Part shown: positions 4,032-46,565 of the stretch, piece after piece
Layout: every line of letters starts with the position of its first letter
Position numbering within the stretch: position 1 is the first letter of the stretch
Sequence record: MT446396.1
From: Escherichia virus TH22
Reading direction: 5' to 3' (one strand)
Length of the DNA stretch: 64,000 nucleotides
Position numbers and translations under genes: made by a program
The notes under the pieces: generated by a model
Told to the model about the DNA's origin: nothing
The model's database searches: none
Seen by the model: only the letters and a program-made list of their open reading frames with translations

Positions 4032-4606
4032 TGATGTATGAACCCGGTTGCATGGGTGATATGAAAGGTCCACAAGGATGTGCAGGTATTCCAGTTCCAA
4101 GAGATGAATTTATGATTACCAAAAGATATTGGGCAGACCTTGATGATGGCGATGAAGGAATCAAGGTGGAAAACGTTGATTGGTCGCGATGCAATCGCCA
4201 TATGAAAGAGCTTTTAATTGAGGAATATAAAATGAAGCACATCGTTAAAGGTTGGCAACCAGAACCACATAAAGAACAAACACCTGACCCATTGATTTGT
4301 TATAGTGAAAAATATGGTTTTCGTACATGGAGCGATGAATATGACAAGTTAGTGTGCTCCAGATTCTATGCCTGGATGGGAATACTATTTTTTCCAATCC
4401 TGTGGTTTTTCCTGACAACGAAAAATGACTTGCCAGTTTGCATATTCGGGGCAGCAGTGACTGCGGCCATTGCAGGTATTATCGCCTCATTTTTATGGAC
4501 TGCGATTATTGAAGTACCTTTTCGTATTTCTAAAGTTAAAAAGGTATATGACAATATCACAAAGAAAAATACATTGAACTCTTTTATTGAGGAATGTCGC
4601 AAATGA
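4025..4606 (+). CDS. hypothetical membrane protein
   Basis: C-terminal hydrophobic segments (WMGILFFPILWFFL, IFGAAVTAAIAGIIASFLW). Confidence 0.45.
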   Translation: MVMMYEPGCMGDMKGPQGCAGIPVPRDEFMITKRYWADLDDGDEGIKVENVDWSRCNRHMKELLIEEYKMKHIVKGWQPEPHKEQTPDPLICYSEKYGFRTWSDEYDKLVCSRFYAWMGILFFPILWFFLTTKNDLPVCIFGAAVTAAIAGIIASFLWTAIIEVPFRISKVKKVYDNITKKNTLNSFIEECRK

Positions 4607-28922: not shown

Positions 28923-29480
28923 ATGAACGAAATTAAATTAACCAAGAATAACTATGTAAATAATAAAGAGCTTCTGAAAGCTATTTCGGAGTGGAAACAG
29001 AAGCTGAATGCGAACACCGACCCGAATAAAATTATTCGCCAGAACGACGTTATTGGTCTGGCAATTATGCTTATAGCCGAAGGTCTTAGCAAACGTTTCA
29101 ACTTCTCCGGATATACCCAATCCTGGAAGCAAGAAATGATTGCAGACGGAATTGAGGCCGCAATAAAAGGTCTTCACAACTTCGACGAAACAAAATACGA
29201 TAATCCACATGCTTACATAACAATGGCTTGCTTCAATGCTTTCGTTCAGCGTATCAAAAAAGAACGTAAAGAAATGGCAAAGAAATATAGCTACTTCGTC
29301 CATAACGTGTATGATTCACGTGATGACGATATGGTGGCTCTGGCTGATGAAACATTTATCCAGGACATCTATGACAAAATGACACAGTACGAATCCTCTT
29401 TAGTTAAAGCGCCAGGGTCTGATAAGAGCGCCAAAGATAAAGAAGGTGATTTGGATTTTTTATATGGAACATCAATTTGA
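28923..29480 (+). CDS. 55: late-transcription sigma factor gp55
   Basis: 185 aa; [12 protein letters not shown]...[36 protein letters not shown]...[16 protein letters not shown] near-identical to T4 gp55. Confidence 0.95.
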
Positions 29481-37299: not shown

Positions 37300-40014
37300 A
37301 TGCAAGAATTTTATTTAACTATCGAACAAATCGGTGACAACCTACTCGAACGATACATTGACAAGAATGGTCATGAACGTGTTCGTGAAATCCCCTATGC
37401 CCCGTGCCTGTTTATGCATGCCCGCGAAGACCAAGCTGCAAAATATACAGACATCTATAATAAAGGTTGCGTGAAAAAAGAATTCGATTCCATGCGTGAT
37501 GCATCCCAGTGGATGAAGCGAATGAATGACATGGGTCTCGAAGCTATGGGTATGGATGACTTTAAACTCGCATACTTGTCCGACCGTTACCCGCACGAAA
37601 TCAAATACGATTCAAGTAAAATCCGTGTGGCTAACTTCGATATCGAGGTGACATCTCCTGATGGGTTCCCTGAGCCGTCTGAAGCACGTCACCCTATTGA
37701 TGCCCTGACGCACTATGATTCGATAGACGATAAATTCTATGTCTTTGACCTTTTGGGCTCACCATACGCCACTGTGGAGCAATGGTCTATCGATATTGCT
37801 GCTAAGCTGCAAGAAGATGGCGGTGATGAAGTCCCTGAAGAAATCCTGGAAAAAATTGTTTATATGGCTTTCGATTCAGAAGAAGAAATGCTCCAACAGT
37901 ATTTGGTATTCTGGAACGAGAAAACTCCGGTTATGTTAACTGGTTGGAACATCGAGAAGTTTGATATTCCATATATCTACAACCGCCTTAAAAATGTATT
38001 TGGTGAAGCTACGGCAAAACGTTTGAGTCCACATCGTCGTACAAAAGTTAAGGTCATTAACAACGGTTTCGGTGAAGAACAAGAAATCGTTCAGATTCTG
38101 GGTATCTCTGTTCTGGATTATCTGGACCTGTATAAAAAGTTCAGCTTCACAAACCAACCGTCTTATTCGTTGGATTATGTTGCGGAATCTGAGCTGGGTG
38201 TTGGTAAACTCCCGTATGATGGCCCGATTTCTAAACTGCGCGAATCAAATCACCAACGGTATATTTCTTATAACATCATCGATGTTTATCGTGTTGTACA
38301 GATTGACCGTAAGCGTCAGTTTATTAACCTTAGCCAGTCAATGGGTTATTATGCAAAAATGCAGATTCAGTCTGTATTCAGCCCAATCAAAACTTGGGAT
38401 GCGATTATCTTTAACAGCCTGAAGACTCAAAATAAAGTCATTCCGGAAACCAAATCACATGTTCGTCAATCGTTCCCAGGTGCATTTGTTAAGGAACCGA
38501 TTCCGAACGCATACAAATACGTTATGAGCTGTGACTTAACATCTCTGTATCCGAGCATCATCCGACAGATTAACATTAGTCCAGAAACGATTGCCGGGTC
38601 ATTTACACCAGCGCCAATGTACGAATACATCGCAGGAACTGCTGACCGTCCATCTGATACATTTAGTTGTGCTCCAAACGGTATGATGTATTTTAAAGAT
38701 GTTGCGGGTATTATTCCAACAGAAGTCACCAAGGTGTTTAATCAGCGTAAAGAGCACAAAGGTTATATGCTTGCGGCTCAACGTAATGGTGAACTGATTA
38801 AGGAAGCCCTGCGTAATCCAGGAACTGGTACAACCGAGCCTGAAGTTGATTATCGTTATGACTTTGATGATAATATGAAAACAACCTTGCATGGTCTGAA
38901 TCAAACAGTTCTGAATGGTATGTTGTACAAAGCGCAGATGGAAGAAGTTGCAGGCATGACCGCACAGATTAACCGTAAACTGCTTATCAACAGTTGTTAT
39001 GGCGCTCTGGGTAATATCTGGTTCCGTTACTTTGACCTGCGAAATGCAACCGCGATTACATCTTTCGGACAACTTACATTGCAGTGGATTGAGCGTAAAG
39101 TTAACGAATATTTTGATAGTGTTTGTGGTACAAGTGGTGAAACATATGTATTCTATGGCGATACTGACTCCATTTATATCCAGTGCGATAACCTGATTAA
39201 AAAGGTTGGTGGCGAATCTAAATTCCGCGATACAAACCACCTGGTTGACTTCATGGACAAGTTTGCGAAAGACCGTCTGGAACCAGCAATCGATAAAGCT
39301 TTCCGTGAGCTGGCTGAATACATGAACAACAAACAGCACCTTATGTTTATGGACCGTGAAGCGATTGCATGTCCTCCGTTGGGTTCTAAAGGTGTTGGTG
39401 GATTCTGGACGGCGAAGAAGCGTTATGCTCTGAACGTGTACGATATGGAAGGCACCCGATATGCTGTTCCGAAACTGAAAATCATGGGTCTGGAAACTCA
39501 AAAGTCGAGTACGCCAAAAGCATGTCAGAAAGCCCTGAAAGAATGTATCCGTCGCATGCTGCAAGAAGGTGAAGAATCTCTGCAGACATACTTCAAGGAA
39601 TTCAATAAGGAATTTAATGAGCTTAACTACATGACAATCGCAGGTGTATCATCGGTTAACAACATCCAGAAATATAATGAGGGTGGTTTCCCTGGATTTA
39701 AGTGTCCGGCTCATATCAAAGGCGTGCTCGCTTACATGCGTGCAACCAAAGGGTTGAAGACTGTTCCACAAATCATGGAAGGGGAAAAGGTGTATGTGCT
39801 TCCTCTTAAAGTTGGTAACCCGTTTGGCGAAACTGTGATTGCATGGCCATCAGGGATTGAACTCCCGATTGAAATTCGTGACCAGGTTCTGCAGTGGATG
39901 GACTACAACACACTGTTCCAGAAGACTTTTGTCAAACCGTTAACGGGGTTCTCTGAAGCAGCAAAGGTTGATTACGAAAAGAAAGCAACTCTTTTTGATA
40001 TGTTTGACTTTTAA
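37300..40014 (+). CDS. 43: DNA polymerase gp43 (family B)
   Basis: 904 aa; exonuclease motifs (FDIEV) and polymerase motifs (SLYPSII, YGDTDS) aligned with T4 gp43. Confidence 0.97.
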   Translation: MQEFYLTIEQIGDNLLERYIDKNGHERVREIPYAPCLFMHAREDQAAKYTDIYNKGCVKKEFDSMRDASQWMKRMNDMGLEAMGMDDFKLAYLSDRYPHEIKYDSSKIRVANFDIEVTSPDGFPEPSEARHPIDALTHYDSIDDKFYVFDLLGSPYATVEQWSIDIAAKLQEDGGDEVPEEILEKIVYMAFDSEEEMLQQYLVFWNEKTPVMLTGWNIEKFDIPYIYNRLKNVFGEATAKRLSPHRRTKVKVINNGFGEEQEIVQILGISVLDYLDLYKKFSFTNQPSYSLDYVAESELGVGKLPYDGPISKLRESNHQRYISYNIIDVYRVVQIDRKRQFINLSQSMGYYAKMQIQSVFSPIKTWDAIIFNSLKTQNKVIPETKSHVRQSFPGAFVKEPIPNAYKYVMSCDLTSLYPSIIRQINISPETIAGSFTPAPMYEYIAGTADRPSDTFSCAPNGMMYFKDVAGIIPTEVTKVFNQRKEHKGYMLAAQRNGELIKEALRNPGTGTTEPEVDYRYDFDDNMKTTLHGLNQTVLNGMLYKAQMEEVAGMTAQINRKLLINSCYGALGNIWFRYFDLRNATAITSFGQLTLQWIERKVNEYFDSVCGTSGETYVFYGDTDSIYIQCDNLIKKVGGESKFRDTNHLVDFMDKFAKDRLEPAIDKAFRELAEYMNNKQHLMFMDREAIACPPLGSKGVGGFWTAKKRYALNVYDMEGTRYAVPKLKIMGLETQKSSTPKACQKALKECIRRMLQEGEESLQTYFKEFNKEFNELNYMTIAGVSSVNNIQKYNEGGFPGFKCPAHIKGVLAYMRATKGLKTVPQIMEGEKVYVLPLKVGNPFGETVIAWPSGIELPIEIRDQVLQWMDYNTLFQKTFVKPLTGFSEAAKVDYEKKATLFDMFDF

Positions 40015-44005: not shown

Positions 44006-44014
44006 AATATTTTA

Positions 44015-44038
44015 AAAGGGGCTTACGGCCCCTTTTTC
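44015..44038 (+). terminator. rho-independent terminator after gene 41
   Basis: AAAGGGGC-TTAC-GGCCCCTTT then TTCTT. Confidence 0.65.
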
Positions 44039-44076
44039 TTATGTTATAATGACCCTATCAACTACTGGAGAATAAA

Positions 44077-44394
44077 ATGAAAACTATTGATTGCAAGGCG
44101 GAATACAAAGTTTATTATCATGGCTCAAGCTCTAATGCTGGAATCCAAAATATGCTTTGCCCTCCTGATGCAACTGGTGTTCTGTCAGAAGTTGGGCGTA
44201 AGAAAAATTTAGGGCGTGTGTTTTTTACTGAAGATATTGGTTTGGCGCGTATCTATGCAGGAAGAGCAGCTCGCTCATATGGAGGAGAACCCCGTCTTTA
44301 TCGTGTGATTGCACCTGTTGACGTGGTTTGTTTAAATGATACTAAAGGCGCAACCGTTTATCACGCCGCCTGGGCCTTCTGTGAGGAAATCTAA
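44077..44394 (+). CDS. hypothetical protein
   Basis: Terminator, promoter and conserved leader upstream. Confidence 0.45.
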   Translation: MKTIDCKAEYKVYYHGSSSNAGIQNMLCPPDATGVLSEVGRKKNLGRVFFTEDIGLARIYAGRAARSYGGEPRLYRVIAPVDVVCLNDTKGATVYHAAWAFCEEI

Positions 44395-44598
44395 ATGTAT
44401 AAATTAGAGAACGTAGTGTTTATTGGTTGGTTTGAAAATGGTAATATGTTTACCAAAGAAACCGCGCTGGATGTTAGTGACCAAAATATGATTGAATGGG
44501 TTACAGTGCAGTATGCAGAAGTGAATAATGCGCTGGTTAAAGCCTTTGTTAATGACAATAAAGTTTTTGAATATGATGCCCGCATTGAGGAAATTTAA
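44395..44598 (+). CDS. dmd: Dmd antitoxin (discriminator of mRNA degradation)
   Basis: VVFIGWFENGNMFTKE...VQYAEVNNALVKAFVNDNKVFEYD aligns with T4 Dmd. Confidence 0.85.
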   Translation: MYKLENVVFIGWFENGNMFTKETALDVSDQNMIEWVTVQYAEVNNALVKAFVNDNKVFEYDARIEEI

Positions 44599-44838
44599 AT
44601 GAATATCACATTAATGAAACCTACCCCTAGTTCTTTTTGGAATAAATCTTTTGGTAAGCATAATATGTTTATCCAACGCACCGTAAGCAGCTGGGAACTA
44701 GTTCTTTCGGAAGACCATGGCGGTTATGAACAAGAATACGTAGAGTTCTTCGAATTTCCTGTGAAACCTACCAAGCGTCAGATTCGTCAGACAAAACGCA
44801 AATTCCGTAAAATTTATCTGGAAGATGCATTAAAATAG
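44599..44838 (+). CDS. hypothetical protein (RPTK-x-IRQ tail family)
   Basis: C-terminal KPTKRQIRQTKRKFRK. Confidence 0.45.
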   Translation: MNITLMKPTPSSFWNKSFGKHNMFIQRTVSSWELVLSEDHGGYEQEYVEFFEFPVKPTKRQIRQTKRKFRKIYLEDALK

Positions 44839-44895
44839 TGTACAACAAAGGGATAATGCTGTATATTATCCATATCAACTACTGAGGAGATTGAA
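44838..44895 (+). promoter_or_regulatory. early promoter plus conserved leader upstream of sp
   Basis: GTGTACAAC -35, TATATT -10, leader ATCAACTACTGAGGAG. Confidence 0.5.
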
Positions 44896-45189
44896 ATGAA
44901 AAAGTTATTAATCGCGGCAATTCTTACCGTAGCATCATGTGGTACAGCTCCAGTTACTGCTGGACTTGATAAAAACCTTTGTGAGTGGTCTATGACTGCG
45001 GACCAAACTGATGTTGAAACTCAAATTCGCGCTGACATCATGAATATTACTAAACGTGACCGCCCTGATATGGTTAAAGAAGTATCTGACCAATTGACTT
45101 CTGGTGACGTTATGCAGTATAACTATGTTCTGTATTGCGATGCTTCATTTGACAATAGCAAAATTGTTCAATGGGTTACAGGTGAATAA
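44896..45189 (+). CDS. sp: Spackle periplasmic protein
   Basis: 97 aa with signal peptide; DKNLCEWSMTADQTDVETQIRADIMNITKRDRP...VMQYNYVLYCD matches T4 Sp. Confidence 0.85.
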   Translation: MKKLLIAAILTVASCGTAPVTAGLDKNLCEWSMTADQTDVETQIRADIMNITKRDRPDMVKEVSDQLTSGDVMQYNYVLYCDASFDNSKIVQWVTGE

Positions 45190-45190
45190 A

Positions 45191-45628
45191 ATGATTAACA
45201 GAAATTTGGTTATCAAAAAACTTCGTTGTAAAAATCCAAATGCGCAGGCATACAGGGTGTTTTGGAGCGACGAAATTCAATATCTGGGTTATTTTCTTGT
45301 TGATAGTGATGATAGAATTACGTTTGCTCATAAACTTCTTAACAAAGAATTAAACCATTGGAAAGAACTTATTGCAGTCAAGTCTAAATTATTTTCGCGC
45401 AATACAATGCACCAATTGGTTTATTTTTTCGCTGATGGTATTCCTGACAAGGTTGAGTTTGAAGGGTTTGAATTTAAAGACATCAACCCTGACAATGAAT
45501 TGAATGACAGTATTGTTAATATGGGTATCCCTGGCAAGTACATCAAAAACAGTCTTTTGAAAATTCTGGAAAATCCTGTTTATTCAGTTGACGACCAGAT
45601 TTTTAATGCCTTCATGAAGCGAGATTAG
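45191..45628 (+). CDS. hypothetical protein
   Basis: ATG 45191; C-terminal 11 aa DDQIFNAFMKR identical to next gene. Confidence 0.45.
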   Translation: MINRNLVIKKLRCKNPNAQAYRVFWSDEIQYLGYFLVDSDDRITFAHKLLNKELNHWKELIAVKSKLFSRNTMHQLVYFFADGIPDKVEFEGFEFKDINPDNELNDSIVNMGIPGKYIKNSLLKILENPVYSVDDQIFNAFMKRD

Positions 45629-45629
45629 T

Positions 45630-45989
45630 ATGAGTTATTATAATTTTCTGAATTTTGAACTGGTGAGCAATAATAATGGTAATGCTCACTATGAATTTCG
45701 TGAGCCCCGTTATAATCAGGCGATTGGTTATATCATCGTTAAAGATGGTGTTATCATAAAGGCTCGTTCGTTTATGACAATGAATGGGCCTTGTGAAGAT
45801 AATCGTGGTTATCCATTTGATAAAAAGAACGTACGCGATTGTGCAGTATGGATAACCGGAAACCCTGAAATTGGGGTCATGATATCTACTGAAGCAAATG
45901 ACATTCTGGAAGGGGCTTGGGTTAAAGCTCAAGAACCGCCTACTGATATTGATGACCAGATTTTTAATGCCTTCATGAAGCGAGGTTAA
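45630..45989 (+). CDS. hypothetical protein
   Basis: C-terminal DDQIFNAFMKRG, identical tail to upstream gene. Confidence 0.45.
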   Translation: MSYYNFLNFELVSNNNGNAHYEFREPRYNQAIGYIIVKDGVIIKARSFMTMNGPCEDNRGYPFDKKNVRDCAVWITGNPEIGVMISTEANDILEGAWVKAQEPPTDIDDQIFNAFMKRG

Positions 45990-45990
45990 T

Positions 45991-46212
45991 ATGTTTGTTT
46001 TGACCCAATTCTCTAAAGCAATATATAGTTACTCTTGTCAGTGGGAAGTCTTTATTGATACTCCGTCTCCCAAGTATGGAGTTTTTGGACGAGTAACTAC
46101 TCAAGCTTATGTTGCACGACCGACCAAACGTCAGATTCGTAAACTTAAAAAGGCACATCGTCAATTGATTAAAAGAAGGGAACAATATGAGTGCAATGTG
46201 TACGGGCTCTAA
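45991..46212 (+). CDS. hypothetical protein (RPTK-x-IRQ tail family)
   Basis: C-terminal RPTKRQIRKLKKAHRQLIKRR. Confidence 0.4.
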   Translation: MFVLTQFSKAIYSYSCQWEVFIDTPSPKYGVFGRVTTQAYVARPTKRQIRKLKKAHRQLIKRREQYECNVYGL

Positions 46213-46378
46213 GATTTCGGTCTTCCAGATTTTTGAAGAATATGAAATCGTGTCGCAAGACCAAGAAGCAATCCATGTTATCGCTGATGATGGTGTTACC
46301 TGGATTATTCCGTTGTATCATGAAGACACTTATGAAGTGACTGATGCAAATGGTGATAAAGCTATCTTCGTTGTATAA
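46187..46378 (+). CDS. hypothetical acidic protein
   Basis: 63-aa ORF overlapping upstream stop. Confidence 0.35.
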   Translation: MSAMCTGSKISVFQIFEEYEIVSQDQEAIHVIADDGVTWIIPLYHEDTYEVTDANGDKAIFVV

Positions 46379-46397: not shown

Positions 46398-46565
46398 ATG
46401 AAAACATTCAAAGATTTTATCAACGAAGATATGGCTGCCGGTGATGCAGGTGGAAACCCAACTAATATCGCAACAGGTACCACTTCCGGGGCAGTTGTCA
46501 ATAAAGGCCCTGAACAAATCCCATCAAAAAAGCGTAAGAATAAAGACGATAAACCTACAGTATAA
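46398..46565 (+). CDS. hypothetical small protein with CTS-like N-terminus
   Basis: 55 aa; N-terminus MKTFKDFINED resembles internal-protein capsid-targeting sequence; SD GGAAAGGGGG. Confidence 0.4.
   Translation: MKTFKDFINEDMAAGDAGGNPTNIATGTTSGAVVNKGPEQIPSKKRKNKDDKPTV

Follow-up and report, generated by a model that had tools for sequence, protein, structure and literature searches.

Why should two neighbouring phage genes, whose protein products show little resemblance over most of their length, end in the same peptide and in nearly the same DNA? The question is raised by a 64,000-nucleotide stretch of Escherichia virus TH22 (sequence record MT446396.1; "the window" below means this whole stretch), a T4-like phage of the genus Gaprivervirus (Tevenvirinae), in which two adjacent genes that we call A and X lie in the variable segment that separates the helicase gene 41 (end 44005) from the primase gene 61 (start 46598). 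The T4 counterpart of this region is an anti-toxin-antitoxin island with dmd, tifA (61.4) and adfA (61.2) (PMC9391042). We think it likely that A and X stand in tandem as far-diverged paralogues of AdfA, the product of adfA, and that the C-terminal peptide they have in common, here called the "tail", has been nearly frozen by selection and is also a point at which copies recombine.

The shared 3' end is genuine. A first-pass annotation of the window had reported an 11-residue C-terminus and a 28-nt 3' end common to the two genes, and the sequence bears out both the C-termini and the gene coordinates: gene A ends in ...VDDQIFNAFMKRD and a stop (i.e., ...VYSVDDQIFNAFMKRD and a stop) and gene X in ...IDDQIFNAFMKRG and a stop (i.e., ...TDIDDQIFNAFMKRG and a stop). 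The 28-mer lies within an exact common core of 31 nt, GACCAGATTTTTAATGCCTTCATGAAGCGAG (45593-45623 and 45954-45984), which has no match at up to 3 mismatches in the 64-kb window beyond its two copies; none of 100 dinucleotide-preserving shuffles yielded any match to this core, and no chance match of this kind is expected in the window. The core is in turn part of a direct repeat of 45 nt with a spacing of 361 nt (Table 1), in which 42 of the 45 positions are identical and the three mismatches are GAC/GAT (synonymous), GAT/GGT (last residue D or G) and TAG/TAA. The repeat extends past the stop codon and takes in the next gene's ATG (GAG[A/G]TTA[G/A]TATG) and therefore holds the last 12 codons, a Shine-Dalgarno-like GAGG or GAGA, the stop and the next start. 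Much of the identity between the A and X tails at the DNA level is due to the peptide being already identical; measured against window codon usage for an identical peptide, 10 of the 11 codons match vs 5.75 expected (P about 0.006). No RNA structure beyond that of shuffled sequences was found at the repeat (z-scores +2.1, -0.3 and -0.9), and neither copy, the one at the A/X junction included, has a promoter-like or terminator-like site.

The tail recurs widely among relatives of this phage. T4 gp61.2, i.e., AdfA, ends in ...SIDDQIFNAFMNRG, the same ending is found in JS98 orf30 (A family), and the T2 gene at that position, an X-family member with 44% identity to window X, has it as well. A blastn search with the 45-mer found 558 INPHARED phage records with a total of 755 places. 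When a profile of the three families (AdfA, A and X) was run exhaustively with HMMER against 1.84 billion representative proteins, seven full-length proteins and two C-terminal fragments were recovered, 118-210 aa in length, and all nine carry the tail; a tenth match, the 657-aa repeat protein P0072, was judged spurious because six low-scoring repeats add up to its score. We also surveyed 19 IMG/VR loci anchored on sp, the spackle gene, together with nine loci from GenBank phage records and the window (locus handles begin with L). In these loci sp is followed, directly or after a few nt, by zero, one or two tail-bearing genes; X is present or absent, and AdfA, A and X occur singly or in pairs after sp (Table 1). 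The unrelated gene that stands in this position in the distant loci L041-L043 adds a fourth kind to those that can occupy the slot.

Comparison of 36 tails from 25 loci, which represent three families and four lineages, points to the level at which the tail is conserved. The peptide DDQIFNAFM has no amino-acid change in any of the 36 tails, and synonymous changes, and no others, are seen at six of its eight degenerate codons (GAC/GAT twice, CAA/CAG, ATT/ATA, GCC/GCT/GCA and TTT/TTC); the purifying selection is therefore on the peptide and not on the DNA or RNA. Four metagenomic proteins have substitutions in the tail, each of them a single one (DQQ, FKAFM, FNSFM and DVQ). The structural models of both X and A show the tail as a helix of low confidence after a stretch that is itself poorly predicted, and the segment preceding the tail differs greatly in length and sequence between families; judged from these models, the tail looks like a short linear interaction motif.

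The remainder of the two proteins is another matter. A and X are about 20-26% identical, their genes have no detectable DNA similarity outside the tail, and they look unrelated because sequence-to-profile searches detect the tail alone. In profile-profile comparisons with hhalign, for which the last 14 residues (the tail) were trimmed and 80 column shuffles per pair served as the null, the scores were 27.2 for X vs A (shuffles 12.0 +/- 2.3, maximum 19.0), 24.8 for X vs AdfA (13.0 +/- 2.5, maximum 20.6) and 23.5 for A vs AdfA (12.4 +/- 1.8, maximum 16.2), with 0 of 80 shuffles as high in each case. A word-indexed homologue search with X alone gave only close relatives, and a mixed-family alignment was needed. 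A joint MAFFT alignment of the families is collinear, and outside the tail a Gly and a Val are invariant in the motif G-[YF]-I-x-V-K-D-x-x-I-I. The AlphaFold2 models of X and A (Table 1) have the same order of elements, including strands 18-25 and 30-38 in both. When they were compared by Foldseek with the BFVD database, the best non-self match of the X model was the A-family protein of VR25 (E 2.4e-5, TM 0.61, probability 1.0), next came a protein of 157 aa from a Yersinia phage (6e-5) and one of 212 aa, comparable to AdfA in length (4.8e-4), and the best non-self match of the A model was the X family (E 2.6e-5, probability 1.0). A PDB fold search with the X model gave nothing significant (best E = 0.027), and the weak matches to an acetate-kinase N-domain and to GNAT-like structures were discarded. 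Indirectly, then, predicted models and profiles support the view that A and X are remote homologues, with a fold and an ancestry in common with the modules of AdfA. Gene A can be described as one AdfA-like module followed by a disordered linker, in which a second conserved helix (KYIKNSLLKILE) lies, and by the tail ...DDQIFNAFMKRD, and gene X as one AdfA-like module, a short disordered linker and the tail ...DDQIFNAFMKRG. The middle of gene A (window about 45250-45520) occurs in two allelic forms that are about 65% identical.

How closely do A and X answer to the description of AdfA itself? Both end in the AdfA C-terminal motif ...[IV]DDQIFNAFM[NK]R[GD], both occupy the AdfA slot that follows sp directly in the cluster from gene 41 to gene 61, and homology of their bodies to the AdfA module is indicated by shallow profiles (tail-trimmed hhalign scores above all 80 of the shuffles) and by predicted structures (Foldseek). 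The two-module size of AdfA, 208-216 aa, is not theirs, since A has 145 aa and X 119 aa, with one module each. Two profiles, Pfam AdfA (PF23813, anti-DarT factor A; gathering cut-off 27 bits) and phrog_3781, find the window tail with the very last of their C-terminal positions. X-family proteins of Tequatrovirus that are 44-47% identical to X exceed the Pfam cut-off (P0060 with 31.1 and P0065 with 32.6 bits) and match with residues 34-118 vs profile positions 129-211. X aligns to both halves of AdfA, and the bodies of A and X align to its C-terminal module. The N-terminal half of AdfA scores 28.3 against the C-terminal half in hhalign (shuffles 11.3 +/- 2.3), and AdfA is therefore an internal tandem duplication of the module; the motifs HK...FVKDN...HI..V.FDI are repeated in both halves of the aligned AdfA proteins (T4 = L006 2633-3259). 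In the literature AdfA is described as being without homology to known protein families, anti-DarT (DarT1) activity has been demonstrated for some AdfA alleles only, and T2, whose sole gene in this position is X-type, has been described as lacking an adfA homologue (PMC11825919). The site of AdfA specificity, R/H164 in RB69 numbering (PMC11825919), is probably the His at T4 position 165, which in our alignment is matched with variable residues of X and A.

The second role that we ascribe to the tail rests on comparisons between lineages. When tail DNA distances are expressed as mean differences over 33 nt, tails of different families in the same lineage differ by 1.5, vs 4.0 for tails of the same family in different lineages; X tails of Gaprivervirus and Tequatrovirus differ by 5.7, while Gaprivervirus X and A differ by 1.6 and Tequatrovirus X and AdfA by 1.1. 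Tail DNA thus clusters by phage lineage, not by gene family. From ATTGATGAC to the end of the stop codon, for example, the T2 X tail and the T4 AdfA tail have the same 39 nt (45 of the 48 printed nt agree), and the T2 X tail departs from that of window X at 5 sites. Within each of the genomes L002, L026 and phiD1, the tails match in all 11 codons (P about 5e-4). Gene X itself is a 361-nt unit that some phages carry and others lack. L034 and L033 are 97-100% identical on both sides of a difference in which exactly this unit is gone, the single tail of L034 being that of L033 copy 1 through ...GATTAATATG (...GAT TAA TATG) and then continuing into the gene 3' of copy 2. JS98-type phages have no X, one tail and then the same downstream gene, and the same kind of X presence/absence difference is seen between T4 (AdfA, 61.1) and phiD1 and L037 (AdfA, X, 61.1). 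In the genomes without X, the junction falls inside the repeat. Taken together with the conserved peptide, these junctions make the tail both a functional peptide and a recombination point. It is known that T4 deletes and amplifies segments of the counterpart of the A/X region by way of 6-10 bp homologies (PMC9391042); a 45-nt repeat should be an easier substrate for recombination than such homologies, and if it does recombine easily, the persistence of X in many isolates suggests that X is under selection.

Several other observations concern recombination or remnants in and near the tail-bearing genes. L034 (IMGVR_UViG_2706795394) has a window-type gene A patch in an L033-type backbone, i.e., mosaic recombination has occurred inside the gene too; the breakpoints of this patch were considered as a case of exchange at the tail and rejected, as they lie inside gene A and only the X-deletion junction is in the tail. 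Yersinia phage phiD1 (L008, NC_027353) has at 1850-2042 an N-rich partial second copy of X between two tails, which probably reflects faulty assembly, or population heterogeneity, brought about by the repeats. In T2 (L007, LC348380; 1463-1492) and L040 (4295-4306) the stretch that separates sp from the X-type gene contains AGAGGTTAGTATG, which is like the last 13 nt of the tail and may, by its sequence, be a remnant of a deleted AdfA; sp in the same T2 record is frameshifted at its C-terminus. DCP80 (L045, PQ671644) has four tail copies, with an X tail that abuts genes 62/44 on the opposite strand, and was rejected as a multi-cassette array because its record, of only 141 kb, appears to be rearranged or misassembled.

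The explanation that we favour runs as follows. Each of A and X consists of one module of roughly 100 aa, a beta-sheet with helices, followed by a variable and poorly predicted linker and then by [IV]DDQIFNAFM[NK]R[GD], and AdfA is two such modules fused, with one tail. The tail may serve as a short helix by which all members dock to one and the same partner, with the bodies diverging under arms-race pressure. Because the paralogues keep the same 12 codons, with stop, ribosome-binding site and next start packed in, the tail would be an island of identical DNA, 40-45 nt long, that closes each module on its 3' side. Recombination of the T4 type could exploit this island, with crossover or gene conversion homogenizing the tails within a lineage and with exactly one unit of module plus tail being dropped or added; flanking frames and translational coupling would stay intact because each unit has its own stop, ribosome-binding site and next ATG.

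A number of points weigh against this explanation. The hhalign probabilities for the bodies are 7-33% and the alignments are shallow, and the Foldseek scores, which come from predicted and not from solved structures, are partly fed by the common tail. Window X falls below the PF23813 cut-off (20.7 bits) and matches by its tail only (residues 106-119 vs profile 198-211), and window A has no PF23813 match at E<=0.1. A and X are accordingly filed here as divergent AdfA-like paralogues, because slot, tail and apparently module are common to them and AdfA while the Pfam cut-off and the two-module architecture fail. The mechanism of AdfA itself is presumed to be toxin binding (PMC11257639/PMC11825919). 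As for recombination, the direction of the X events (loss or gain) is read from the distribution, and the excess of matching codons is modest in the window and not significant in VR7 (8/11) and L003 (7/11); since it is strong in some genomes and absent in others, homogenization is real and episodic. Both roles that the first-pass annotation suggested for the repeat were partly right, and its premise that the genes are unrelated was wrong at depth. Its two "unrelated" genes with dissimilar bodies are dissimilar in that about 20-26% identity and no DNA similarity remain outside the tail, and they are nonetheless remote homologues with the same predicted fold. The homology of the upstream parts that it set against its own proposal does exist in an ancient sense, and a simple recent duplication does not, because the bodies are saturated and the tail is near-identical. 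Of the two roles it offered, the shared functional tail has gained the support of strong purifying selection on a peptide with synonymous variation beneath it. The recombination junction for module swapping has gained that of an X difference of one 361-nt unit with its junction in the repeat, of tail codons that evolve in concert within lineages, and of paralogous modules gained and lost; no swapping of unrelated cassettes was seen.

Other explanations have to account for the same facts. If the tail were purely a recombination linker, i.e., a 45-mer kept as DNA for the swapping of unrelated cassettes and encoding a functionless peptide, the cassette presence/absence junctions in the repeat and the grouping of tails by lineage would be understandable, and non-coding motifs known as promoter early stem-loops (PeSLs) serve such a role in T4-type phages (PMC2839356). 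We regard this as quite improbable, for the conserved thing is not the DNA (synonymous variation at six of eight degenerate codons, with the nine-residue peptide constant in 36 tails), the cassettes are related by both hhalign and Foldseek, and the HMMER search returned no superfamily member without the tail. Very little credence can be given to the idea that the tail is a translational-coupling or RNA element (ribosome-binding site, stop/restart or RNA structure) for the downstream gene. It would explain the last 10-12 nt only, not the 27 nt that code for DDQIFNAFM, where the variation is synonymous and points to peptide constraint, and no RNA structure is evident vs shuffles. What speaks for it is that the last 12 nt are always GAG[G/A]TTA[A/G]TATG, that the next gene starts 1 nt after the stop, and that the final codon tends to track the downstream gene, being GAT (with the weaker GAGA) mostly before X, with L034 as an exception, and GGT (with GAGG) before most other genes and also before X in T2 and L037. 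A recent local event, in which one illegitimate recombination or gene conversion copied the tail onto an unrelated neighbour, would fit the 10 of 11 identical codons in the window and the 11 of 11 in L002, L026 and phiD1; it deserves hardly any credence, as it is already refuted by the distribution of the tail, which is present in 558 phage records and spans four lineages and three families, and the T2-like X relatives (44-47% identical) already bear the tail.

Among known systems, AdfA is the closest to the tandem, tail-bearing genes A and X. They resemble AdfA in the slot directly after sp, in the identical C-terminal peptide and in bodies that align to its C-terminal module, and are unlike it in having one module each, AdfA having two in its 208-216 aa. 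PeSLs (PMC2839356; Comeau et al. 2014, PMC4122927) are also short repeats that flank accessory genes in hyperplastic regions, where recombination between direct copies removes or adds the intervening gene, and the indels bounded by a repeated motif that characterize them are found here too, with the X presence/absence junction inside the tail. PeSLs, however, are intergenic and combine a sigma-70-like early promoter with a terminator stem-loop, which the tail repeat does not; it is coding and conserved as a peptide, and has no stem-loop, promoter or terminator. By analogy with such elements, an excised circle of one tail unit is conceivable. The short-homology deletions and amplifications of T4 (Srikant et al. 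2022, PMC9391042) took place in the same region, and there too a segment between direct repeats was lost or tandemly gained with one repeat left; those laboratory events used chance microhomologies of 6-10 bp, whereas the tail has 45 nt, is under selection as a peptide and is recurrent in natural isolates.

The clamp-binding epitopes of T4-family gp43, gp55 and gp33 are a likeness of a different sort, each being a short C-terminal peptide on a divergent unstructured linker, acidic and hydrophobic, and common to otherwise different proteins (PMC2988020). In the tail, QIFNAFMK has the same hydrophobic-F-[D/N]-x-F pattern as the end of gp43, a resemblance seen by eye only on which we base no claim of membership, and unlike the epitopes the tail has basic residues at its end ([NK]R[GD]). 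Window gp43 (37300-40014) ends in KKATLFDMFDF, an RB69-type clamp-binding peptide, and window gp55 (28923-29480) has DLDFLYG four residues from its end. C-termini with the hydrophobic-F-[D/N]-x-F pattern are found in the window in gp43 and the A and X tails only, barring one non-coding open reading frame (ORF) on the reverse strand. That the sliding clamp is the partner of the tail is speculative, and we see only an outside chance for the larger analogy in which the tail would be a docking motif, e.g., for the sliding clamp gp45, that tethers the fast-evolving anti-defence modules of AdfA, A and X to a single fixed partner at the replication fork, each unit being a self-contained in-frame cassette. 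T4-type recombination would then stack units, fuse them (as in AdfA) or drop them, as a coding counterpart of PeSL or integron cassettes.

The setting of A and X is detailed in Table 1. The 2.6 kb that surround them match Escherichia phages TH55 and UPEC07 at 100% identity and other Gaprivervirus phages at about 95%. A DUF7279 paralogue of the kind found on the right of X (TifA2 in Table 1) stands directly 3' of the single tail in JS98-like phages and in L034.

Table 1. Features of the A/X locus in window coordinates, elements of the AlphaFold2 models in residue numbers (E, strand; H, helix; pLDDT, predicted local distance difference test), and order of genes after sp in the surveyed phages
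Feature	Position or order	Strand	Remarks
Small ORF	44077-44394
dmd	44395-44598
61.4/DUF7279 homologue	44599-44838
sp (spackle)	44896..45189	+	Conserved left neighbour; Pfam T4_Spackle 3.6e-43; survey of 28 loci
Gene A	45191..45628	+	145 aa; phrog_8539; JS98 orf30 family
Tail repeat copy 1	45588..45632	+	A's last 12 codons, GAGA, TAG, X's ATG
Gene X	45630..45989	+	119 aa; phrog_4122; T2 "61.2" family
Tail repeat copy 2	45949..45993	+	X's last 12 codons, GAGG (Shine-Dalgarno-like), TAA, next gene's ATG
Second DUF7279 (T4 61.4/TifA family) paralogue	45991..46212	+	Right neighbour; Pfam DUF7279 3.3e-20
o63 (63-aa ORF)	46187-46378
61.1	46398-46565
X model, core	E6-15, E18-25, E30-38, E41-47, E55-57; H65-76; E82-85		pLDDT 80.7 (whole model)
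X model, after core	H87-101; tail helix 107-117		pLDDT <50 at 101-106
A model, core	E5-11, E18-25, E30-38, E42-51, E56-59; H70-81; E87-91		pLDDT 72.2 (whole model)
A model, after core	H115-127; tail helix 133-142		pLDDT <50 at 99-125
Order after sp, Gaprivervirus	A, X, TifA2
Order after sp, L034	A, TifA2
Order after sp, JS98-like Dhakavirus	A, TifA2
Order after sp, L035 and L036	AdfA, o63
Order after sp, T4-like	AdfA, 61.1
Order after sp, phiD1 and L037	AdfA, X, 61.1
Order after sp, T2 and L040	X, 61.1
Order after sp, L041-L043	Unrelated tail-less 68-aa gene (4295-4515), before 61.1		Distant; sp 48% identical

The rest of the locus has features of its own. Its two paralogues of DUF7279, the family of T4 61.4 (TifA, anti-ToxN), have in common the motif PTKRQIR and a 22-nt repeat with 91% identity between its copies (44766-44787 and 46119-46140); in phage pEC-M719-6WT.2 (L003) the second of them is absent, with AATATG microhomology at the junction. 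A PeSL-like arrangement is found right after gene 41 (44014-44078), where a terminator-like stem-loop (44014-44036) precedes a promoter-like site (44049-44078); there is a similar promoter-like stretch before sp (44839-44884), and the repeat D10 connects 44045-44067 with 44862-44884. As for the archived records, the product names given to small ORFs of UPEC07 (L001, MW250787), i.e., clamp loader subunit, DNA polymerase, nucleotidyltransferase and major capsid domain, appear to be spurious, and one X-family cluster (P0004) is named at NCBI as a protein from a metagenome-assembled genome of Limosilactobacillus reuteri, presumably a mis-binned phage contig.

What is new here is that AdfA is a duplicated module, that hundreds of T-even-like phages have one-module paralogues, of the X and A families, in the AdfA slot and often one behind the other, that nothing in this superfamily is more constrained than a C-terminal peptide of 12 residues outside the folded module, and that the DNA coding for this tail is a natural hotspot for the loss and gain of anti-defence genes. 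These results give annotators a ground for labelling phrog_4122 and phrog_8539 as AdfA-like. If the docking and cassette analogy were true, it would supply a mechanism for AdfA, and T2 and other "adfA-less" phages would carry a half-size paralogue of it. The advance is incremental and reveals no new kind of system; its worth lies in the tail itself, which offers a testable handle on an anti-defence family of the T4-like phages.

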